Virus record (IMG/VR): IMGVR_UViG_3300044726_000156
Reading direction: 5' to 3' (one strand)
Source: a virus
DNA: 64,000 bases
The translations under genes were made by a program, and so were the position numbers. Positions 1,758 to 59,510 of the stretch are shown here, piece by piece. The first letter of the stretch is position 1. The number at the start of each line of letters is the position of its first letter. The notes beneath the pieces were generated by a model. The model had not been told where the DNA came from. It saw only the letters and a list, made by a program, of their open reading frames with translations, and made no database searches.

Positions 1758-2858
1758 TTACGGGTTCGGGTCCTTGGCGGCGGTGTCGATCGACAGGATG
1801 CCGAAATCCTTGCCGTTGAACCGGGTCTTCTTGACACCCATGATGACGCCGGCCGCGACCTTCGGCTCGTTGCCGTGATCGGCCATCTCCTCGGTCCAGG
1901 TGAACCGCAGCCCGCCAGCCGAACCGTAAGCGCACACGCCAGCCTGGCGCCCCATGAACAGGGCGCGGGCGGCGAGCACGTTGGAACCAGCGCCGTAGTC
2001 GGAGAATCGGATGACGCTTTCGTGGCTGTGCAGCACGACATTGTCGATCATGCCGAGACCGCCCTTGAAGATCGGGTTGTTGCGACCCTCGGCCTGCGCG
2101 GCGGCCTTCTGGATGTCAAGCCAGCCACCGGCGTCGGAGATGCGAAGGTCATGTTCCTGGAACGGCGACATGACGCAGACGTAGTGCTGCTCGCCATCAA
2201 TCGAGATGGCGATCATATTGGCGGTCGATGGGTCCATCGCCCTCATCATCGTCGCCTTGACGGCGGCGCGCTCGATGACGGCACGGGTCATGGTGTCGCC
2301 GACGACCAGCGTGTTCTTGGCGTTGCCGGTGCCACCGTAGAGGATGTGGCCGGCGTCGGGAGCATCGATGGTGTTGCCGGCAAAGCCGGTCCAGGTGATG
2401 TCCTCGACGTAGTCCTGATTGATGCCGCGGGCACCGGACAGATAGATGAAATTGAGCTGATCGATGTACTGCGACCAATAATCCGAAAGGCGGTCGCGCG
2501 CGATCGAGCGGATGTTGTGTAGGGTGCGCTTGCGGCTCATCTTGCCGCCAGCGGAGACACCATGCCGCATTTGATCGATGTAGACCTGGTCGGTGAAGAA
2601 CCGGAGATTCTCCTCCTTGCCCTCCAGTCGATTGTCTCCCGTGGTGGGCTTATTGCGGAGCTGTACCGACAGATCGAAGCTGATCGTGTCGCCGGCGTCC
2701 GATTCAAGGTCCGTGAGACGCTGGATCACTCCATTGTCGGACTCCGATACGAACTTGCGGTCGAAGTAGCCCTTCGACAGGATGTCGAGGAACAGCTGAC
2801 CTGACCAACGCTTGACGGCCTTGGGATCGCCGAACGGGATTGTGGTGGGACCAGCCAT
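1758..2858 (-). CDS. Major capsid protein, N4-gp56 family
   Basis: 366 aa with family motifs GDPKAVKRWS, DLESDAGDTISFDL, LEGKEENL, IDQMRHGV, GGKMSRKRT and ARALFMGRQA; AGGAGG RBS. Confidence 0.93.
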   Translation of the reverse strand: MAGPTTIPFGDPKAVKRWSGQLFLDILSKGYFDRKFVSESDNGVIQRLTDLESDAGDTISFDLSVQLRNKPTTGDNRLEGKEENLRFFTDQVYIDQMRHGVSAGGKMSRKRTLHNIRSIARDRLSDYWSQYIDQLNFIYLSGARGINQDYVEDITWTGFAGNTIDAPDAGHILYGGTGNAKNTLVVGDTMTRAVIERAAVKATMMRAMDPSTANMIAISIDGEQHYVCVMSPFQEHDLRISDAGGWLDIQKAAAQAEGRNNPIFKGGLGMIDNVVLHSHESVIRFSDYGAGSNVLAARALFMGRQAGVCAYGSAGGLRFTWTEEMADHGNEPKVAAGVIMGVKKTRFNGKDFGILSIDTAAKDPNP

Positions 2859-2881
2859 TGGACGTGCCTCCTAGAGGGTCA

Positions 2882-2894
2882 GCACGTCCTGCGC
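2882..2894 (-). promoter_or_regulatory. Late-leader motif GCGCAGGACGTGC, copy 1 (major capsid leader)
   Basis: Exact 13-mer also at 54775-54787 and 58785-58797. Its GGACGUG pairs with CACGUCC lying between the SD and the AUG. Confidence 0.75.
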
Positions 2895-2943
2895 TTTTGC
2901 GAAGAAATACTTCGAAACGATCGCCGCGGCAAGCGGCATGCGT

Positions 2944-3303
2944 CTAAGTGAGGTTGACGCCGCCGTCGAGCACCGTCAGGAACAGCCGATCCTCGGTCTG
3001 CGGCACCGGCCACATCGACGACCCAGCCCTGTACTTGACGTAGCTGACGGCGATCGCCGACTGGCCGGTCAGTGAGATGGCGCGGCCGAGGCCGTTGCAC
3101 ACCAGCGCCACTTCCGAGCCGTCTGGGTTGAACAGATCGTCGAAGTGGACGCCGTCGACCGACACCTGAAAGGTGATGTCGCCGCCGTCCCAGCCCTTCG
3201 GCGTGACGATGCGGACCGGCCGTCCCTGCGTGAAGTTGGCGATCTCGGAAAGCGACTCGCCGGCCCGGATGATCGGACCGTCGACGATGACCAGATTTGG
3301 CAT
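2944..3303 (-). CDS. Conserved phage hypothetical protein (119 aa, beta-rich)
   Basis: AGGAGG RBS before MPNLVIVDGPIIRAGESLS; motif W-x-GG-x-ITFQVS-x-DG. Confidence 0.8.
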   Translation of the reverse strand: MPNLVIVDGPIIRAGESLSEIANFTQGRPVRIVTPKGWDGGDITFQVSVDGVHFDDLFNPDGSEVALVCNGLGRAISLTGQSAIAVSYVKYRAGSSMWPVPQTEDRLFLTVLDGGVNLT

Positions 3304-3313
3304 TGCCTGCCTC

Positions 3314-3526
3314 CTACGCCGCCGACTGGTTGTAATCCACGCGCTTTGGCACGCCGGTGATGCCATGCGTGTAGCGGGCCGGGACGATGCCGTAAGCGAG
3401 CATGCGCAGCGGCAGGTCGGTGAAGAAGGCGAGCTTCACCATCGACCCGGATTTCTGCTCGACCCGCACCGCAGCGACGTCGCCGATTTCCATTCCCTCG
3501 CCGACGCGGAGCGTTTTCGAGAACAT
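3314..3526 (-). CDS. CsrA/RsmA (carbon storage regulator)-like RNA-binding protein
   Basis: Aligns without gaps to E. coli CsrA as recalled: MFSKTLRVGEGMEIGDVAAVRVEQKSGSMVKL vs [32 protein letters not shown], 13 identities in the first 31 aa. AAGGAGG RBS. Confidence 0.68.
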   Translation of the reverse strand: MFSKTLRVGEGMEIGDVAAVRVEQKSGSMVKLAFFTDLPLRMLAYGIVPARYTHGITGVPKRVDYNQSAA

Positions 3527-4490: not shown

Positions 4491-6884
4491 TCACGCGGGT
4501 GGCGGCGCTCCACCAATCCCTAGTTGCTCTTGTGGTCCCGCACCGGGCTGCGGGGGTTCTTGCTGCGACACGCCGGGCTGCTGCTGCTCGGCCTGCTGTT
4601 GCTGCTGCGCGGCGGCCTGTGCCTCCGCGGCCTGTGCCTGTTGCGCCTGCGCCGCCTGCATAGTGGCGAGCTGCGCGGCCTTCTTGTCGGAAGTCGACAT
4701 GAATCCACTTTCCGACAAAATGTAATCGGCCACCGGCGTGGCGGCCGGCACGGCGATCGCCACCTGGGCGGCGTCGAGTGCCTTCTGCTGTGCGTCGACA
4801 TTGTGGCCGGGGATCTTGGCGAGGGCCTCCTGCGCCAGCGCGGTGGTCTGCTCGGCCTTGGCCTGCGCCGTTCTGGCGTCGCCGATCGCCTTCTGCAGCT
4901 GCGCCTCGCCCATCGCCTGCTGCATCATTTGCTGCTTGGCCATCGCCTGCATGCGCTGCTGGTCTTCCGGCGAGGGGTTCTCCTTCTCGTCGGGGTCGAA
5001 CTGTCCGGTGACGCCGCGGATGCGCTTTACGATCTCCTCGCGGTTCGGCAGGTCCATGTTCTCGACGGCCAGGTCGAGCAGCAGGATCGAGATCTCCGGC
5101 GGCAACCGGGTCATCGCCTCCATCAGCTCGTCGGCCGCGGCCTGCCGGATGGTGGCGTGCCAGGCGGCCTCCGAGATGACGAAGTCCGCCTTGTTGCGGG
5201 TGATGTCGTTCTCGGGCAGGCCGTCGTTGACCTCGACATAGTCGGACTTGCCACGCATCGAGGTGATGCGGAACTGCTTCGGCTCGTCCATGAACTGCTC
5301 GATGTTGGCGAGCTGCTTCTCGCCGTGGACCTGCTGCGCGAACAACAAATTGTCGAACAATTTGGCGGTGGCCAGGCTGCCCTGATCCTGCCGGCGTTGT
5401 ATCGCCACGCCCGACGTGGCATTGGTCTTGCGACCCAGCAGCTCGTCGGTGACGCCGCTGGCCTGCTGGATCATGGCGATGTCGCGCGACATCAGTTCGA
5501 GGTGCCATTGGGCAAGGTCACGATCAGCGTTGAGAATGATCTCCTTGCCCGGCACCTTGCGAATAATGGCATCCGGTCGACTGACTTCCTCCTGGAATTC
5601 CTCGAAGGTCATGTCGTCAGGCAGGGCGTCGTAATCCATTATGATCTTCGACGTCGAGAGGATATGAAGCGCCTTGGAAGCGCGCTTGTTCACGTCGACC
5701 TGGATGTCTTTGAGCCGGCGAATGACCCCGTAAGGAGCGCCGTCCTTGCCGCGCCGGTAGCCCCAGATCGGGGTCAGCGGGAAGCGGTTGTGACGGTAGG
5801 GGCTGGGCGAGAACCACAGCATCCCGGCGTCGACGAATAGGCCGACATGCATGCGCATGATGGTCTTCTTGACGACCTCGGCGTCACCGGATTCGACCTG
5901 ATCGGTGTGGCCGGCCGACTGCGGGTCGAACAGCTCGCCCGAAAAGTCGCCGCCCTTCAATTTCCCCGCTGTTACCGGCCGCTTGTACCAGGCCTCGATG
6001 ATCCTGACGCGCATGCGCTGGAAGCCGGTGACGTCGCGCGCGGTGCCGGTGCCGTAGACCTGGTCGAGAGCGTTCTCCTGACTGTCCATCGGCTCGTCGC
6101 CGTACTCGTCGTGCTGCTGGAAGTCGTCGGCGCTGCTGGAAGATGATGTGAGGATCTCCGCGCGGTCGGGAAACAGGGCGATAGCGACGTCGAGGTCCAC
6201 CCATTTGGAGCGGAAGATGTACCTTCCGTCTTCAACGTCGAGGTTTGTGGCGGCCGTATCGTGAAGGACATTGCGCCAGCTTTCGTAGCGTGTGTAGAGC
6301 GGCTCGTCCTCGCCGTCGCCGTCATAGCCGTCCTCGATCCAGCCGATGCCGACCTTGATGGCGTCCTCGAAGGCGCGGGAGATGTGGAAGTGCTCGCGGT
6401 TGACGTCGCTGAGATACTTCATCAGCGCGGTCTTCTGGGAGGCCGGCTTGGCGTGCTGCTTCTTGCGCGGCAGCACCTTGAAGTCGGTGCGCGATCGCTT
6501 TTGTGAACCTGTTATCCAATCGATCGACGTCGAGATGACGTTGTAGACCAACGGCACCTGGCCGCGGTCCTCCAGCTGCGCAGCATCCGCCTCGGACCAC
6601 TGGATATTGTCATAAAAATCATCGTCTTCCGCCATCTCGGCGCGGTTTTCGGCCTGCCGGTCAAGCTCGTTGGAGTAGCAGGCCAGCATCTGGCTGTGCA
6701 GCTCCTGCATCGCCGGCGAATCCAGCTTGGCGCTGTCGCCGCCCGCGTTGGTGCGGTCCGGCATGGCCAGCGCCGTGGTCGCCTTCTGGCTGGCCGGCAT
6801 CGGATCGCCGTAGCCGCCGTTCTCCCTGTCTCGCTTCGCCCTCACCGATCCGTCGCGCGCCCGCAGGTCGAACATCTGTGCCAT
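4491..6884 (-). CDS. Portal protein (P22/Bcep22-like)
   Basis: 797 aa; motifs EDDDFYDNIQW, GQVPLVYNVI, RFPLTPIWGYRR, G-x-PYGVIR, QQASGV and SGVAIQRRQDQG; Q/A-rich C-terminal barrel. Confidence 0.92.
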   Translation of the reverse strand: MAQMFDLRARDGSVRAKRDRENGGYGDPMPASQKATTALAMPDRTNAGGDSAKLDSPAMQELHSQMLACYSNELDRQAENRAEMAEDDDFYDNIQWSEADAAQLEDRGQVPLVYNVISTSIDWITGSQKRSRTDFKVLPRKKQHAKPASQKTALMKYLSDVNREHFHISRAFEDAIKVGIGWIEDGYDGDGEDEPLYTRYESWRNVLHDTAATNLDVEDGRYIFRSKWVDLDVAIALFPDRAEILTSSSSSADDFQQHDEYGDEPMDSQENALDQVYGTGTARDVTGFQRMRVRIIEAWYKRPVTAGKLKGGDFSGELFDPQSAGHTDQVESGDAEVVKKTIMRMHVGLFVDAGMLWFSPSPYRHNRFPLTPIWGYRRGKDGAPYGVIRRLKDIQVDVNKRASKALHILSTSKIIMDYDALPDDMTFEEFQEEVSRPDAIIRKVPGKEIILNADRDLAQWHLELMSRDIAMIQQASGVTDELLGRKTNATSGVAIQRRQDQGSLATAKLFDNLLFAQQVHGEKQLANIEQFMDEPKQFRITSMRGKSDYVEVNDGLPENDITRNKADFVISEAAWHATIRQAAADELMEAMTRLPPEISILLLDLAVENMDLPNREEIVKRIRGVTGQFDPDEKENPSPEDQQRMQAMAKQQMMQQAMGEAQLQKAIGDARTAQAKAEQTTALAQEALAKIPGHNVDAQQKALDAAQVAIAVPAATPVADYILSESGFMSTSDKKAAQLATMQAAQAQQAQAAEAQAAAQQQQQAEQQQPGVSQQEPPQPGAGPQEQLGIGGAPPPA

Positions 6885-38884: not shown

Positions 38885-39105
38885 AGTGGGCGCCGTAGAA
38901 ACCTCTTTTTTGTGGAGGGAGGCGTTTAGTGAGGGTGAGCGGCCAGCCCGACAACGGATAGTCACCTCCCAGCCTCCCCCCGGTCTCAACAGCGCCGGGA
39001 TTCATACGGGTCAAGGTGACACGGCTAGGAAAGTGCAGTCAGGAATTGGGGTTTTTCGTGTTGAGGAACGAGAGGCGGCGAGGGTCGTGCCCCCGCCGCT
39101 TTTTT
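38885..39105 (+). ncRNA. Candidate structured GGA-rich small RNA or 3' UTR
   Basis: No credible ORF; nested stems GGGAGGC/GCCTCCC and GAGGGTGA/TCACCTC; seven GGA trinucleotides; ends in a terminator. Confidence 0.35.
39075..39105 (+). terminator. Rho-independent terminator (possibly bidirectional)
   Basis: GCGGCG-A-GGG-TCGTG-CCC-C-CGCCGC-TTTTTT between convergent operons. Confidence 0.75.
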
Positions 39106-53492: not shown

Positions 53493-54752
53493 TCATGCCC
53501 TCCTGATGCCGAACGCTTGCGCCTTCACACCGGGCCTGGCGGTGGTCAGCTTGACGGCGCTCGAGCGCGCCTTGGCCGGCGACTGCGAGCTGCGCCGCGG
53601 TGCCGGTGTCGGCTTCTTGGCCTTGACCTTGGCCGGTCCCTTCTTGCCACCCAGCGCCTTGTCCATCTTGCTCACCTTGTGGTCCAGATCCTGCACCGCC
53701 TTCATGGTGATGCCGATGGCGTCCTGCAGGTCGATCGTCCCGGTGTCTTTCTGGCCGGTCGCCTTGGCGTATCTGTCGGCCATCGTGCCGATATGCTGCT
53801 TGGCGCCGCCGTCGGCGCCCGGGCGGTTGTCCTTGTAGCGGTAGGTCGAGACCGGCATTTTCTTGACCGCCTTGAGGCCGTCGCCGGTCTTGACCTTCTT
53901 GATGTTTTTCTTGGCCTTGCGATCGGACAATCCGATCGCCGCGCCGCCGATCGTGCCGATGGCGCTCCACAGGCCCTGCGCGTTGGCTGATTTCAGCTCC
54001 TGTTCCTTGCCCCATGCATCCAGTTGGAGACCGTACTGGTTGAGCAGCGTCGACGCCTGGCCGGCGTAGCCCTGCATGGCGCCGCCGAACCCCTGCCCCA
54101 TGATGGCCGAGTTGGAATTGGAGATCTGCTGGTTGGCCTGGTTCATGCCGACCGCGCTGCTGCCCGCGCCCAGCGCCTGGCTGACGCCCTGGGCGGCCTG
54201 CGCCGGCAGGCCGGCATACATGTTGGCGACATCCGCCTTCAGAGCCAGACCCTTGTCGCGCATGGCGGTCCTGGCCGCGTTGCCGGCACCCGCCGTGGCG
54301 GTGGCGGTGGCCAGCTCGCCGGCCCGCTCGATGCCTTTGTAGCGACCGGATCCCGGCTTGACGCCGAGTGCGGCGCTCTCGCGCTGCGCCTGCGCGCGAG
54401 CGGCGGCTGCTTCCGTCTGGACGCCGGTGCGCGCCTCGGCGGCGGCCTGCGCCTGCCGCTCCGGCGACGAATAGGACAGCGCATCCTTGGCGAAGGCATC
54501 CTGCGCTCCCCAGCCCTTGCTCTCGTAGCGGGCGCGGTCCTTCTTGGCGTTGGCCAGCGACATGTCGCCGATGCCGAGCTGCTGCTCGGTGACGCGCTTG
54601 GTCAGCGCGTCGAGACCCTTCTGCCGATCGGTGGATACCTTGAAGGCGTCCCTCGCGAAGGACAGCCACTGCTCGCCGGTCGTCGCCTGCTTGAGAGCCG
54701 CTGCGCCGATCTGGGGATCTGGGGATGGTGCGTCGCCGCCGCCTTTAGCCAT
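53493..54752 (-). CDS. Internal virion (pilot-like) protein with a C-terminal peptidase S74 chaperone domain
   Basis: MAKGGGDAPSPDP, A/Q/G-rich helices, then LSDRKAKKNI...YRYK...HIGTMA...ID..DAIG....AVQ.L. Confidence 0.85.
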   Translation of the reverse strand: MAKGGGDAPSPDPQIGAAALKQATTGEQWLSFARDAFKVSTDRQKGLDALTKRVTEQQLGIGDMSLANAKKDRARYESKGWGAQDAFAKDALSYSSPERQAQAAAEARTGVQTEAAAARAQAQRESAALGVKPGSGRYKGIERAGELATATATAGAGNAARTAMRDKGLALKADVANMYAGLPAQAAQGVSQALGAGSSAVGMNQANQQISNSNSAIMGQGFGGAMQGYAGQASTLLNQYGLQLDAWGKEQELKSANAQGLWSAIGTIGGAAIGLSDRKAKKNIKKVKTGDGLKAVKKMPVSTYRYKDNRPGADGGAKQHIGTMADRYAKATGQKDTGTIDLQDAIGITMKAVQDLDHKVSKMDKALGGKKGPAKVKAKKPTPAPRRSSQSPAKARSSAVKLTTARPGVKAQAFGIRRA

Positions 54753-54774
54753 CGCAGGACTCCGTGGGAAGCCG

Positions 54775-54787
54775 GCACGTCCTGCGC
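54775..54787 (-). promoter_or_regulatory. Late-leader motif GCGCAGGACGTGC, copy 2
   Basis: CGCAGGAC pairs with GUCCUGCG immediately before the AUG; TATAAC lies 14 nt upstream. Confidence 0.75.
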
Positions 54788-54802
54788 TGGTTAGTTTGGC
54801 CG

Positions 54803-55249
54803 TTATACAGCGATCGGTCGCACCGGCATAGACACCCACCGGCAGTCGCGCGCCAGCATGCCATAGAGCAGCAGATCCTCGCGATCGAGACCGGCCTCGC
54901 GCATGACGCCCTCGAGCTTCCAGCCGCCAAACCTGTTGGTGAAGCGGATCGACGCCTTGTTGTTCCTCGAGATCAGACAGGTGATGCGCGGGAACATCAG
55001 CTGCACGAAGGGGTACGCCATGACGCGAATGATGAACTCGCGCGTCATCCAGTGCTTGCTGGAATCCGAGACGACGGTCATCAGGCAGTCGTTGACGCCA
55101 AAGGTGTCGAACACGACGACGCCGCGGATCTTGCCGTCCTTCTCCATGGCGATCGCCTTGGCGTCATTGCGGAAGCGATGACCGTGCCCGAGGATCTCGG
55201 TGGCCCAGGCGACCAGACGCTCGTCCTGGTCGTAGATGTACTCGATCAC
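54803..55249 (-). CDS. GNAT-fold virion protein (T7 gp13-like position)
   Basis: G.I.GVVVF, W.TREF....AYPF.QL...RIT.LI...N.ASIR....G.K.EG..R.....D..LYGML..DCRW. Confidence 0.82.
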   Translation of the reverse strand: MIEYIYDQDERLVAWATEILGHGHRFRNDAKAIAMEKDGKIRGVVVFDTFGVNDCLMTVVSDSSKHWMTREFIIRVMAYPFVQLMFPRITCLISRNNKASIRFTNRFGGWKLEGVMREAGLDREDLLLYGMLARDCRWVSMPVRPIAV

Positions 55250-55650: not shown

Positions 55651-57536
55651 CAGGGCTGTCTCTTCAGGTCATCCATCGTCTTGGCCATCGTCATGCGGAA
55701 GATGCGACCGTTCGTATGCACGTCGATTTCCCATGTGCGCGCCTTGAAGCCGGATGGCAAGCGCACCGGCTTGTTGACCTCGGTGATGAAGATCGGCAGC
55801 TGCTTCTTGTCGGCATAGATGCCGACCGAGACGGTGGTCTTGCCGGCGGTGGCCGTCGAATCGCCGTTCGCGCCGACCACCACGGCGCCGCGCGGCAGCC
55901 TGACCAGCCAGTCGCCGTCGACCGGGACGCAGTTCTCGCCGCCCATCCTCTCGTTGTTGGCGACGAGGGTCTCGTCGAAAGTGCCGTTGAGATCGCCGCC
56001 GATGCTCATCAGCTGGCCGTTCGGATAGCGCGTCGTCATCGCGATGTTGTTGGCGTCGATGGCCGCGGCGATCTGGTTGGCGACGATGTCCGGGCTGGTG
56101 GTTTCCGGGTTGACGATGCCGTCGATCAGGACGACGCCGTAGCTCTCCGGGTAGGGCAGCACGAACTCCTTGGACTTCCAGTAGAGGTACTTCGACAGCG
56201 CGCCCGGTGCATCGAGCTGGCGGATCTCAGCCTTGCCGATCGGCACGTAGAACAGCGCCGATTCGGTGACGTCGAACAGCGCCGCCTGGGCGGTGGTTCC
56301 GGCGCGCAGCAGGAAGCTCTGGCCCGACAAGTCGATCAGCAGCGCGCCACGGTCGAGCGTTCCGTCGGCGCGGGGGGCGTCATAGAAGGCGCAGTAGCGG
56401 CCGTTGTACTGTGCGCCGATCATGGTCTCGGGGATCATCGCCGCCCAGTCGTGGCGCGAGAAGATGTTGGACGTGGCGACGCCGACGGATCCATCCGCGC
56501 GGGCGACAACGATGCCCTCGTTGGAGGCGTAGGCGACGGCGTAGCCGAGATCGACCATCGTGCGCTTGCCGATGCACGGCAGGTTCTGCTCCAGCTTCTG
56601 CGACGCCATGCTGTCCGGCTGCGTGCCGGCCACGACGTAGGGCTGGCCCTTGGTGGCGACCAGCAAGGTCATGCCCATCGCGCCGAGCGCAACGATCTCG
56701 TAATCGACGGTGATGATGTATTTCTCGGGCCAGGCGTGCGGCTTGTAAGGCTCGGAGAAGTACAGCTTCTTGCCGTCGAACGCCGCCATCATGCCGTTGG
56801 GCAGCGCGGTCAGGCCGAGCAGCGTTTCGGGCGGTGCGTTGTAGGCGATCGACGGACACGGCTCGGCGGTGGCGTCGACGGCGATGTTGTCGACATAGTC
56901 GGCAGCGGTGACGCCGCGCTCGTGGATCAGGTAGAAATAGGTGCCCGCCGATCCGGTCTGCAGCCGGTAGATGCGCTGCTTGGTGATGCCGCGCGCCGGG
57001 CCAGGCGGCAGCGCGAAACCGCTCAGCGTGACGGTCAGGCCGGTGGGCTGCCAGTCGATCAGGTTGGACACCGGCGACGGCTCGCTCTCCTCCTGAATGC
57101 CGTTCACCGCCGGGATCTCGGTGACATAGGTGTAGATGTACTGGCGGCTCTGGATATCGCCGCTGCCGGTGCCGGTTTTGGTAGCGGTCAGCTTGGTCAG
57201 CGGCCGCGGCACTTCGAGGTCGTAGATCGAGGTGCCGATGCGCATCTTGGGCTTGCCGTCGCCGGTATAGTAGATGCGCTCCTCGTCGACCGGCGCGGGT
57301 ACGGCGTCGACGTCGCTGCTCCAGCCGATCCATGTGTCGAGGTATTTGTAGATGGTCTTCCACGTCGTCGTGGCGGCGGGCGAGCGGTAGACCGATTCCC
57401 TGAAGGGTGTGAGACCGCCGTCGTCGAGGCGGACGTCGAAGGCGCTCTGCGCCGACGTCTCCGGCATCAGCCGCGGGATGATGTGCGGCTGCTCGCCTTG
57501 AAATCCGGTGAGGACGATGACCGGCGCGGAGGGCAT
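55650..57536 (-). CDS. Tail tubular / nozzle protein (beta-propeller)
   Basis: F.GE.P.I.PRL.P..AQ.A, YIYTYVT...EES.PSP, RIYR, L.GL..LPNG.MAAF.G..L.FSEPY.PHAWP..Y and IGKRTMV..G..V.YAS..G. Confidence 0.8.
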   Translation of the reverse strand: MPSAPVIVLTGFQGEQPHIIPRLMPETSAQSAFDVRLDDGGLTPFRESVYRSPAATTTWKTIYKYLDTWIGWSSDVDAVPAPVDEERIYYTGDGKPKMRIGTSIYDLEVPRPLTKLTATKTGTGSGDIQSRQYIYTYVTEIPAVNGIQEESEPSPVSNLIDWQPTGLTVTLSGFALPPGPARGITKQRIYRLQTGSAGTYFYLIHERGVTAADYVDNIAVDATAEPCPSIAYNAPPETLLGLTALPNGMMAAFDGKKLYFSEPYKPHAWPEKYIITVDYEIVALGAMGMTLLVATKGQPYVVAGTQPDSMASQKLEQNLPCIGKRTMVDLGYAVAYASNEGIVVARADGSVGVATSNIFSRHDWAAMIPETMIGAQYNGRYCAFYDAPRADGTLDRGALLIDLSGQSFLLRAGTTAQAALFDVTESALFYVPIGKAEIRQLDAPGALSKYLYWKSKEFVLPYPESYGVVLIDGIVNPETTSPDIVANQIAAAIDANNIAMTTRYPNGQLMSIGGDLNGTFDETLVANNERMGGENCVPVDGDWLVRLPRGAVVVGANGDSTATAGKTTVSVGIYADKKQLPIFITEVNKPVRLPSGFKARTWEIDVHTNGRIFRMTMAKTMDDLKRQP

Positions 57537-58762
57537 CAGATGTACCTGATCATCTTGTTGACGATGAGCGTCGGCTGGACGTTGTTGTGCGGCACGTCGG
57601 AGCCGACGCTGGCGGTGCTGCCCTCCAGCGTGTGAACGTGGTCACCCTGCGAGGCGGGGGTGGTGAGCGTCCCCAGTGCGTTGCCGCTGCCCCACGCATA
57701 GACGCCGACGGCGTTGCTGATGCTCGAATAGTTGTGGGTGTGGTCGCCGCTGCCCGCCTTGGTCTTGGCGGTGGCAGAGACCAGACTGTGAACGTGCGCG
57801 GAAATTTGTGAGTCCAGCAGCGTGTGCGTCTCGAAGCCGCCAGTGCCACCGAGCACATCGCCGTTGATGCCGCCGACGGTGCTGCCGGTCGGATTGGTCA
57901 GGCGGTTGGCCGAGGTGCCGCCCATGTTGTCCTTGCCGGCGGCGACACGGCCGCGGAAGTCGGGCAGGCGAAACTGGGTGGCCGTCAGCCCGACCTCGGT
58001 GAAGTTGCGGCCGATCACCGAGTAGAGCGCGTAATAGGTGCTGCCGGCGGCGCCGAACGTCAGCGCGCGGCCGTCGCACAGCAGCCATCCGGTCGGCACC
58101 TTGGCGTCGGGTCCGGCGAATTCGAAAATGGTGCCGATCGGAATGTCTTCAGGTGCGACGTTCCACACCCGCGACCAGGCACCCCAGACGCTGTTGACCT
58201 TCTGACGCCGCCACCGCTCGTCGCTGTTGTAGCGTTGCCATTCCTGCAGCTGGATCGCCGACGAGGCGACGTCGCAGCGCACCCATGCGTAGGTGTCGAC
58301 CGGCGCGTGCAGCACGCCTGTCGGTGACCAGTAGGTGCCGGATTCGGTGACCAGATCGAGGTCACCATCGGCACCAAGGCTCATCTCGGTGGCGCGCAGG
58401 CGCGGCGGCAAACGGGCGTCGGGGACGATGCCCTTGGTCAGCGCCGCGGCGTCCGACGTCGCTTCGAGCAGCGCGCCGGCGGTGAGACGAACCTCGACAC
58501 GCGAGTTGAGCGGGAAGCCGCGCTTGGCTGTCAGCTCCTGGCCGCGCACCACCGTCAGCGTGACGCCGGTGCGTGAGGTGCAGCGCATGATCTCGCGGTT
58601 GCCGACATTGTCGGTGACGGTGACCGGGAACCAGTGATCGGTGGCGACTGCGGCGACGGGGAACCGCGCCTCGTCGCCCGACGTGATTTTGATCGTCGTG
58701 ATCGTCGCGTCGATCGGCTGGGCGAGCAGCGAAATCGCATTGTTGGTCAGCTGCATGGTCAT
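57536..58762 (-). CDS. Tail fibre protein 2 (anchor, knob-like domain, tail collar)
   Basis: N-terminal anchor shared with 59521..61326; DLDLVTESGTYW knob-like segment; PIGTI.EFAG...P.GWLLCDG...F.LPD.RGR; HNNVQPTL.VNKMIR. Confidence 0.85.
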   Translation of the reverse strand: MTMQLTNNAISLLAQPIDATITTIKITSGDEARFPVAAVATDHWFPVTVTDNVGNREIMRCTSRTGVTLTVVRGQELTAKRGFPLNSRVEVRLTAGALLEATSDAAALTKGIVPDARLPPRLRATEMSLGADGDLDLVTESGTYWSPTGVLHAPVDTYAWVRCDVASSAIQLQEWQRYNSDERWRRQKVNSVWGAWSRVWNVAPEDIPIGTIFEFAGPDAKVPTGWLLCDGRALTFGAAGSTYYALYSVIGRNFTEVGLTATQFRLPDFRGRVAAGKDNMGGTSANRLTNPTGSTVGGINGDVLGGTGGFETHTLLDSQISAHVHSLVSATAKTKAGSGDHTHNYSSISNAVGVYAWGSGNALGTLTTPASQGDHVHTLEGSTASVGSDVPHNNVQPTLIVNKMIRYI

Positions 58763-58784
58763 GGCGGCACCCGTTCGTAGGGCC

Positions 58785-58797
58785 GCACGTCCTGCGC
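58785..58797 (-). promoter_or_regulatory. Late-leader motif GCGCAGGACGTGC, copy 3
   Basis: Shares 16 bp (CCAGCGCAGGACGTGC) with copy 2; TATAGT lies 12 nt upstream; hairpin GCGGC.../...GCCGC runs up to the AUG region. Confidence 0.75.
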
Positions 58798-58836
58798 TGG
58801 CTGTGTCCGACTATAGCAGCCCGTGCCGCCGCGTTG

Positions 58837-59205
58837 CTATCCCGGCTTCTTGACGGGCGGTGGGGTCGGGTCGGGGGTGGTGAAGTCCCACATGCCTGGC
58901 GCGAAATAGGCGTTGGCACGGGCGTTCCACAACGTCAGCAGGGAGCGTTCGATGTCGACGTCCAGCGGCCTCTCCGCGCCACCATCCTCCAACGCCTTGC
59001 CGACGACTGCGTCGGTGGCGACGTGCTGAGCGAGCAGGATGGCGTTGTCGTTACCCGTCAATATGCGGTTGGCGTAGCCGACACGGTTCTTGCTGTTGGG
59101 ACCGCTCGGTTCGGACACGATCTTTTGCGCGATCTTGAGAGCGGCGAAGCTGACCCGCATGTAGAACGACGGGTCGCTGGCTGCAGTAACGATAGATAGG
59201 CTCAT
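58837..59205 (-). CDS. Hypothetical tail-associated protein (122 aa)
   Basis: TGATG coupling with a GGAGG RBS; F..RV..A....A..I..E motif. Confidence 0.7.
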   Translation of the reverse strand: MSLSIVTAASDPSFYMRVSFAALKIAQKIVSEPSGPNSKNRVGYANRILTGNDNAILLAQHVATDAVVGKALEDGGAERPLDVDIERSLLTLWNARANAYFAPGMWDFTTPDPTPPPVKKPG

Positions 59206-59510
59206 CAAACACCTCCCGCCTTGAGCGCGTCCTTGATCGACACGCTCTTGTACAGCTGATTGTCCGGCGCCTCGCTGAGATTCTTCTCGACGATCGGCGA
59301 CGACGACTTCATCTCGATCACCCATTTGTCCTCGCGCCACACCGCGGTCTGGCGTTTCGCGTCCGGCAGGAAGGGCGGCACGTCGAGCGTCGAGTGGGCG
59401 GGGATCAGGTATCGCCCCGGCTCCATCGGATCGGGATCGGCCATCGACGTGGTGTTGGTATAGGCGAAGGTCTCCGGGTCGTAATTGTAAGCCACAAGCG
59501 GCATTGCCAT
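59205..59510 (-). CDS. Tail fibre assembly chaperone
   Basis: YNYDPET..Y.....AD.DP.E.G..LIPAHST...PP...VW....W, directly after the fibre gene. Confidence 0.85.
   Translation of the reverse strand: MAMPLVAYNYDPETFAYTNTTSMADPDPMEPGRYLIPAHSTLDVPPFLPDAKRQTAVWREDKWVIEMKSSSPIVEKNLSEAPDNQLYKSVSIKDALKAGGV

Follow-up and report, generated by a model that had tools for sequence, protein, structure and literature searches.

The window analysed here, the whole 64,000-nucleotide (nt) stretch of the IMG/VR virus record IMGVR_UViG_3300044726_000156, has a GC content of 65% and belongs to a podophage of the Bcep22/PBC5 type, in which the genes for the major capsid protein, a 419-amino-acid (aa) virion structural protein and a tail fibre are each preceded by the same 13-nt sequence, GCGCAGGACGTGC, referred to below as the box. 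The 419-aa virion gene is the first of an operon that includes a giant 3947-aa virion gene, the tail-fibre gene heads the next operon, and internal virion genes are also encoded in the window. Two genes upstream of the capsid gene lies a gene for a 70-aa CsrA-like protein, which we consider below as a candidate partner of the box. The DNA of the capsid gene is 68–74% identical to that of Sinorhizobium phage PBC5, Agrobacterium phage Atu_ph08 and Burkholderia Lessieviruses, and this gene alone gave matches when megablast against GenBank phages found no close phage relative of the window. Window DNA was found in soil and sediment DNA metagenomes only (24 runs). For comparison, 118 loci around capsid homologues were collected, 115 of which were usable. 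Taken together with these relatives, the data make it probable that the 13-mer acts in cis as an RNA element, located at the 5′ end of three late transcripts, those of the capsid gene, the virion-protein operon and the tail fibre.

The box occurs exactly three times in the window, always on the minus strand, which is the coding strand in each case, and 22–23 nt 5′ of an ATG, in the three late leaders where an earlier reading of this DNA made without database searches (the sequence-only reading) had located it. Dinucleotide shuffles give an expectation of 0.03 copies, and none of 100 shuffles reached three. When up to two mismatches are allowed there is no excess, with 10 sites against 8.8 expected. 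Relaxed motif and hairpin scans of the window found no further leader copies and no sponge-like cluster of similar hairpins, including in the region 38885–39105, and the plus strand of the window holds no box copy with fewer than two mismatches that could represent an antisense small RNA. Rfam 15 gave no match in the whole window at gathering thresholds and none at E values up to 10 in the region 2780–2980. The exact GCGCAGGACGTGC is also present in Bcep22 (L142, 48832–48844), where it falls within the coding sequence of gp75, a DarB-like giant gene; lying outside any leader context, it is probably a chance match.

In all three leaders, complementary 3′ arms beside the start codon can be read directly from the letters, as the sequence-only reading had proposed. 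In the capsid leader (copy 1), GGACGUGC (2882–2889) pairs with GCACGUCC, and an inner CCUC/GAGG pairing holds the Shine–Dalgarno (SD) sequence AGGAGG (2867–2872), which lies just 5′ of the 3′ arm and has one base in common with it. In the leader of the virion-protein operon (copy 2), CGCAGGAC pairs with GUCCUGCG, an arm that overlaps the last base of the GGAG SD (54760–54763), and the tail-fibre leader (copy 3) contains the GCGGC/GCCGC pairing. The minimum free energies (MFE) of leaders 1, 2 and 3 are −21.9 (z −2.6), −23.6 (z −3.5) and −17.8 (z −0.9) kcal/mol, the last of these, a shorter fold, being without significance; calculated from the box start to position +15, they are −20.4 (z −1.5), −20.8 (z −1.0) and −22.9 (z −2.3) kcal/mol. 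The long-range fold of the window leaders falls at −20 to −23 kcal/mol, the best fold that keeps a small hairpin formed by the box at about −13 kcal/mol, and that hairpin by itself at about −4 kcal/mol. The most stable fold occludes the start region, so that the earlier claim of an occluded ribosome-binding site stands for the start region as a whole and for the paired SD of copy 1, but needs amending in its emphasis, as what is mainly hidden is the start codon with its immediate 5′ flank, while the SD often lies in the loop of the long-range stem.

The box had been read merely as the 5′ arm of these stems, a description that has to be replaced: it is a self-contained hairpin, GCGC-AGGAC-GUGC, with a stem of 4 base pairs (bp) and the loop AGGAC, which competes with the long-range stem. 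In 91 of the 115 relatives, the box or a variant of the form GCGCA-N-GA-(N)-GYGC is found 20–48 nt 5′ of the capsid ATG; among these 91, capsid identity falls as low as 44%, and prophages of Alpha-, Beta- and Gammaproteobacteria are represented. Complete relatives carry between one and five leader copies, placed before capsid, virion-protein, tail-fibre and endolysin-like (lysis) genes; the leader homologous to that of copy 2 carries the box in relatives G001 and G002, and the tail-fibre leader of G001 has the same box. In the Bcep22 capsid leader, GCGCAGGATGTGC is followed by CACATCC-ATG. Variants of 12 and 13 nt have a common architecture, in which the inner pairs G-C, C-G, G·U and C-G enclose a loop that reads either A-N-G-A or, with a fifth base, A-N-G-A-N. 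Across 68 aligned sequences the closing C-G pair and the loop bases A1, G3 and A4 do not vary, and the G·U pair is retained in 60 of 67. The competing arm usually supplies a perfect GCAC, and by comparison the conserved G·U pair makes the small hairpin weaker.

The stem is often longer than 4 bp, and its extra pairs vary by lineage while pairing is retained (agcgc/gtgct, ggcgc/gtgcc, ggtcgc/gtgacc, gggtgcgc/gtgcgcct, gctccgc/gtggagc and ggctc/gggcc are examples). In the local hairpin, 75.9% of cells are paired compared with 66.5% in shuffles, a value that none of 500 shuffles reached and that exceeds every slid register. Changes on both sides were seen in seven of the eight pairs; the four inner pairs are part of the selection rule, and the unbiased support consists of the outer pairs and the rare inner double changes.

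Some relatives carry tandem hairpins in the capsid leader (L060 and L061, about 60 nt 5′ of the ATG, L097 and L118), the upstream one having a long perfect stem such as tgacagcgc-AAGA-gtgctgtca, and this arrangement resembles the two-site layout favoured by CsrA dimers. In a prophage clade comprising L007, L012 and L083, one hairpin precedes the capsid gene and another a divergent gene (L121; G002:8712–8724, minus strand), and one shared promoter region, TTGCAA...TAAT on both strands, feeds both. The divergent gene of L012 encodes a GH108-like endolysin.

Pairing between the hairpin core and the start region was examined in 71 non-identical capsid leaders, using the last 14 nt of the leader together with the AUG. 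The mean core–start pairing energy is −8.9 kcal/mol, compared with −6.2 kcal/mol for a control of equal length from coding sequence (p 7e-7) and −5.4 kcal/mol for shuffled start regions (p 3e-11), and the leader's own start region beats those of leaders with different cores (rank 0.28 against 0.5 expected, p ~1e-7), although the leaders are related and these p-values overstate their independence. The variable loop bases follow their partners. Loop position 2 forms U-A in 23 of 24 leaders, often with the A of the AUG itself, G-C in 15 of 28 and A-U in 5 of 18, and the fifth loop base forms C-G in 16 of 22, U-A in 5 of 7, A-U in both of 2 and G-C in the single case. Examples of core and start region are GAUGUG/CACAUC, GAGGUGC/GCACCUC, GAAGUGC/GCACUUC and CAUGACGUG/CACGUCAUG, and the distance from the box to the complementary arm varies among leaders. 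As the variable loop bases covary with the start region, both of the two mutually exclusive folds are under selection; each is conserved and shows covariation. The covariation across related phages that the sequence-only reading had suggested looking for is thus present in the local stem and in the start-region pairing alike, and its argument for selection on RNA structure is borne out by strand- and leader-specific placement, the conserved G·U pair and compensatory changes in both helices.

The hairpin would also lie close to the 5′ end of its messenger RNA (mRNA). A sigma70-like promoter scoring at least 8 of 12 is found upstream in 23 of the 71 relatives' leaders, whereas just 11% of shuffled upstream regions score as high, and typical examples are TTGCAA-N17-GAAAAT or the same with TATAAT; Bcep22 has the promoter-like TTGTAA-N17-TAGAAT before its hairpin. 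The −10 element in these relatives mostly ends 12–17 nt 5′ of the hairpin core, which would put the hairpin within a few nucleotides of the transcript's 5′ end. In the window, the TATAAC and TATAGT hexamers upstream of copies 2 and 3 agree with this placement, which had already been claimed for them (Table 1), and TATAAC contains the TAA stop codon of an acetyltransferase gene (54803–55249). The promoter-like hexamers upstream of copy 1 are retained in L001–L006 while their spacer varies.

Table 1. Positions of the leader elements, putative promoter sites and associated genes in the window.
Feature	Position	Strand	Remarks
Major capsid protein gene	1758–2858	−	phrog_334, E 4e-121; 73% DNA identity to PBC5 major head gene; 3′ of copy 1
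Copy 1 3′ arm GCACGUCC	2860–2867	−	Complementary to box positions 6–13; AUG at 2856–2858
Leader hairpin copy 1	2882–2894	−	Exact match; 23 nt 5′ of the major capsid ATG at 2858
Putative promoter-like site CTTGCC-N18-TATTTC	2904–2933	−	Ends 9 nt 5′ of copy 1; below the consensus-scan threshold
CsrA-like protein gene, 70 aa	3314–3526	−	Own AGGAGG SD; phrog_8397 'CsrA-like regulator', E 1e-5; proposed trans factor
Portal gene	4491–6884	−	
Virion structural protein gene, 419 aa	53493–54752	−	phrog_8003, E 1.6e-112; 3′ of copy 2
Copy 2 3′ arm GUCCUGCG	54753–54760	−	Complementary to box positions 2–9; abuts AUG (54750–54752)
Leader hairpin copy 2	54775–54787	−	Exact match; 22 nt 5′ of the 419-aa virion gene ATG at 54752
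Putative −10-like TATAAC (TATGCC-N17-TATAAC)	54802–54807	−	14 nt 5′ of copy 2; also in G001
Tail fibre gene	57536–58762	−	phrog_8469, E 2e-45; 3′ of copy 3
Copy 3 leader and first codons	58748–58784	−	MFE fold: entire box paired with C-AUG-ACC-AUG-CAGC at the start codon
Leader hairpin copy 3	58785–58797	−	Exact match; 22 nt 5′ of the tail-fibre ATG (58760–58762)
Putative −10-like TATAGT	58810–58815	−	12 nt 5′ of copy 3; TAGCAA 18 nt farther upstream; conserved in G001

The capsid intergenic region (2910–2943, minus strand) opens with two small hairpins, GCCGC-uugcc-GCGGC and CGAAG-uauuu-CUUCG, the second of which overlaps the putative capsid −10 element; the upstream transcript could end at this pair of hairpins. 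Between the CsrA-like gene and the capsid leader lies an open reading frame (ORF) at 2944–3366 (minus strand) that has no Pfam or PHROG family match. Translation of this ORF probably begins at the ATG at 3302, preceded by a GGAGG SD immediately after the csrA-like stop codon, for a product of 119 rather than 140 aa. Most relatives lack this gene, and in them the csrA-like gene abuts the capsid leader directly. The roughly 440 nt 5′ of the tail-fibre leader (58763–59204) hold no confident gene; the only long ORF nearby, 58837–59340 (167 aa, GTG start, no family match), overlaps a tail-fibre-assembly-like gene at 59205–59510.

A protein partner for the hairpin is plausible because the phage encodes a protein of the CsrA fold. 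A homologue of the CsrA-like gene lies directly upstream of the capsid gene in 89 of the 115 loci, as found by iterative search, and in Bcep22 the gene is annotated as gp54, 'CsrA-like regulator', and adjoins the major head protein gene gp55. The family profile matches RsmE (2jpp) with an E value of 1.8e-11 and RsmE/CsrA structures with E values from 1.8e-11 to 1e-6, and 29 of 55 family members match Pfam CsrA individually. An AlphaFold2 (AF2) model of the 70-aa protein (predicted local distance difference test score, pLDDT, 81.8) is predicted to have the five-strand CsrA fold with its N-terminal motif (RVGEGMEIGD), and the top 14 Protein Data Bank (PDB) matches of this model in Foldseek are all CsrA, RsmA or RsmE, with a root-mean-square deviation (rmsd) of about 1.0 Å over 44 residues. 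The family consensus has an Arg aligned with the key Arg44 of E. coli CsrA in strand β5. Known CsrA sites present GGA in the loops of short hairpins of up to 4 bp, with the consensus RUACARGGAUGU from in vitro selection (SELEX) (PMC7652899). The AGGAC loop of the window, in its 4-bp hairpin, matches the first of these features; across relatives, the loop keeps only the A-N-G-A pattern, and the ACA and GU flanks of the SELEX consensus are absent.

The hairpin and the gene also tend to occur together. Hairpin phages without an adjacent csrA-like gene have one elsewhere in the same element (G002, G006 and G014), relatives without the hairpin (L099–L102, L111 and L114) have no adjacent csrA-like gene, and a genome-wide search of two of these, L100 and L101 (genomes G010 and G011), found no csrA-like gene anywhere. 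This co-occurrence is suggestive only. Pseudomonas phage F116 (L144, 33363–33569) has an annotated CsrA-like regulator within its structural module, away from the capsid gene, before which a gap of 12 nt leaves no leader; not every phage that bears csrA thus has the hairpin arrangement. The partner is likely to be the phage's own CsrA-like protein and not host CsrA.

Host CsrA was considered as the partner and is disfavoured, as relatives do not conserve GGA in the loop and a chromosomal csrA is reported to be absent from hosts such as Burkholderia cepacia/cenocepacia and S. meliloti (PMC7366521). In such hosts, the phage protein would therefore be the only family member present.

Given these observations, we propose that the leader serves as an RNA operator on which the phage's own CsrA-like protein acts, its binding to the hairpin freeing the start codon. 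Of the two folds, (a) would be the small hairpin, with its 4-bp stem GCGC/GUGC that includes the G·U pair and its A-N-G-A(-N) loop, and (b) the more stable long-range stem, in which the start codon or the nucleotides immediately 5′ of it are taken up in pairs with the loop and half of the small stem. The hairpin would be transcribed first, and the CsrA-like protein may capture it before the complementary arm 20–40 nt downstream is made. Capture of fold (a), probably during RNA synthesis, would block fold (b), leaving the start codon free and allowing late proteins to be made, while in the absence of the protein the far more stable fold (b) would form by default, hide the start codon and keep translation low. 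With its 5′ end bound, the mRNA may be protected as well. The csrA-like gene is the last or near-last gene of the portal–scaffold operon, so that this operon would have to be expressed before capsid, tail and, in relatives, lysis proteins could be made, and strong late promoters that leak in a lysogen would give rise to little protein. The RNA switch itself we regard as very probable, and a role of the CsrA-like protein as its reader, to which the fold and the gene neighbourhood point, as moderately probable; activation seems the likelier direction of control, and the model taken as a whole is evenly poised between right and wrong. More tentatively, and with somewhat less confidence than in that model, we suggest a private Csr circuit in Bcep22/PBC5-like podophages, in which a re-tuned CsrA-family protein would read A-N-G-A in a co-transcriptional kinetic switch at the 5′ end of every late mRNA and so open capsid, tail, ejection-protein and lysis genes to initiation at their start codons, with licensing by a head-operon product and independence from host CsrA.

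A number of observations weigh against this proposal. At the level of the RNA, 86 other 13-mers also occur at least three times on one strand of this GC-rich window, so that the argument rests on position and on conservation in relatives and not on copy number, and the single-sequence fold z-scores given above are modest for DNA of 65% GC. The promoter-like sites in the window are weak, and a consensus scan calls no sigma70 promoter there. The sequence-only reading had also pointed to a CsrB-type CAGGACG within the box, which fits the window but not the family, as the loops of relatives have AGGA, AAGA or AUGA and GGA is not their conserved core; a few lineages that bear csrA-like genes have other loops altogether (AUCA, AUAC and AGAA). 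At the level of the protein, the 70-aa protein of the window alone misses Pfam CsrA, its family being reached via the profile, and its β5 region has a deletion of two or three residues (..TDL--PLRML..) that leaves its Arg aligned one column off Arg44, so that the correspondence of the two is doubtful. The hairpin and the gene are neighbours, and their co-occurrence could arise through synteny alone, with about two independent lineages lacking both. Loop length (4 or 5 nt) corresponds to one β-strand column (Thr versus Arg/Lys) in 82% of 60 phages. On the capsid tree it switches just five times, however, and this test of co-evolution between loop length and protein residue is underpowered, its four or five independent contrasts placing significance out of reach.

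Several other explanations would account for part of these data. A DNA element, whether an operator, a late-activator site or a loading site for pausing or antitermination, would make the RNA pairings incidental, and both the fixed position of the box, 9–17 nt 3′ of −10-like hexamers, and its strong sequence conservation would suit such a site. The compensatory changes in both RNA helices, G·U pairs among them, would be meaningless in duplex DNA, however, and the spacing to the complementary arm varies while the orientation always follows the downstream gene, which makes this explanation very unlikely. A structure that acts as RNA but works without the CsrA-like protein is less remote, though still unlikely: it could be a 5′-terminal stabiliser with an intrinsic attenuator, a site for RNase III or RNase E, or the target of another host or phage factor or of a small RNA, with the neighbouring csrA-like gene a syntenic passenger acting on host mRNAs. 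Covariation reveals structure and not the identity of a partner, the loop has no conserved GGA, and the published view of the gene is that of a moron with host effects (PMC9144972; PMC7366521), all of which agree with such a passenger. Structure alone, on the other hand, does not explain why A1, G3 and A4 are near-invariant and the inner stem GC/GY is fixed across host classes, the gene stays with the hairpin even when it is relocated in the genome, and some hosts, for example B. cepacia/cenocepacia and S. meliloti, are reported to have no chromosomal csrA (PMC7366521). The small-RNA variant also finds no complementary small RNA in the window, where the plus strand yielded no close box copy.

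The proposed direction of control is open to a different challenge, namely that late translation is repressed by a CsrA-like dimer, which would either span the leader hairpin and a second site at the SD or hold the long-range stem closed. Such repression might act as feedback once head proteins accumulate or, were the protein to arrive with the virion, as a brake early in infection. Repression through binding to a hairpin and to the SD is the commonest and classic mode of CsrA action, and RsmA stabilises an SD-hiding hairpin in psl mRNA (PMC7652899); a second CsrA site typically lies 10–60 nt away and commonly overlaps the SD (PMC7652899). Copies 1 and 2 carry a GGA in their SDs (AGGAGG and ACGGAG) about 20 nt 3′ of the loop, which counts against activation, although a GGA at this place does not discriminate a second CsrA site, as any SD contains one, and copy 3 has no GGA near its SD. 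One CsrA peptide was detected in JC1 virions (PMC9144972), as delivery with the virion would predict. Against repression, a selected default fold that already hides the start codon would have no obvious purpose, and very large amounts of capsid protein are needed late in infection. We therefore consider repression improbable and retain activation by release of the start codon as the working model.

CsrA-like genes are scattered among phages and plasmids and are usually dismissed as 'morons' that tamper with the host, and a conserved two-fold cis-element beside such a gene and in other late leaders turns the question of their role into a concrete experiment. If the proposal is correct, it would give a function to so far unexplained phage csrA-like genes and mean that a large group of temperate podophages, infecting Alpha-, Beta- and Gammaproteobacteria, controls its late genes at a post-transcriptional level as well. 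It would further explain how strong sigma70-type capsid promoters are tolerated, and it would offer a compact, host-independent protein–RNA translational switch with natural specificity variants.

The closest known systems are those in which a CsrA-family protein remodels a hairpin that hides the initiation region and so lets ribosomes enter, namely E. coli ymdA, where CsrA activates by opening an SD-sequestering hairpin, RsmA–phz2 and CsrA–moaA (PMC7652899). The arrangement proposed here resembles these but differs in that the protein is phage-encoded and its targets are the phage's own late genes, that a fixed hairpin of 12–13 nt sits at the extreme 5′ end with an A-N-G-A core instead of GGA, and that the start codon, more than the SD, is hidden. 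CsrA also protects flhDC mRNA by binding near its 5′ end (PMC7652899), a mechanism that blocks attack by RNase E, but flhDC, unlike the leaders here, has no alternative fold that hides the start codon.

Two phage systems share individual traits with these leaders. In phage Mu, Com binds mom mRNA beside a stem-loop that hides the start region of this late gene and thereby turns translation on; here, too, a small phage protein would act on a start-hiding stem-loop, but Com is a zinc-finger protein with a single known target, whereas our candidate has a CsrA fold and would serve several late leaders. In lambda, the N–boxB (nut) sites, which combine a boxB hairpin with a GNRA-like pentaloop, a boxA partner element and the arginine-rich N protein, load an antitermination complex and are not known to pair with start codons. 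They resemble the element described here in that one short hairpin with a conserved loop recurs downstream of several promoters in the same phage, where a small phage protein reads it or, in our case, would read it. This general shape, a repeated hairpin near promoters, is all that is shared. Neither a boxA element nor an N-like protein turned up in our analysis, which included no search aimed at either.

Among podophages themselves, the 70-aa gene of the window belongs to the same family and occupies the same head-module position as the CsrA-like genes of Lessieviruses and other podophages (Bcep22 gp54, JC1 gp47; PHROG 8397), whose published label is that of morons of unknown role aimed at the host (PMC9144972; PMC7366521). 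A 2025 functional-genomics study noted that the part CsrA plays in the phage life cycle was previously untested and found that its knock-down in phage PTXU04 leads to small plaques (PMC11879866). In the literature on phage CsrA, from which the Bcep22 genome paper was not covered, we found no description of a cognate leader hairpin. The annotation of the gene and the class of mechanism, a CsrA protein that remodels a leader, are thus already known, while what is new is a cis-element owned by the phage, its A-N-G-A loop without a conserved GGA and its use on several late operons.

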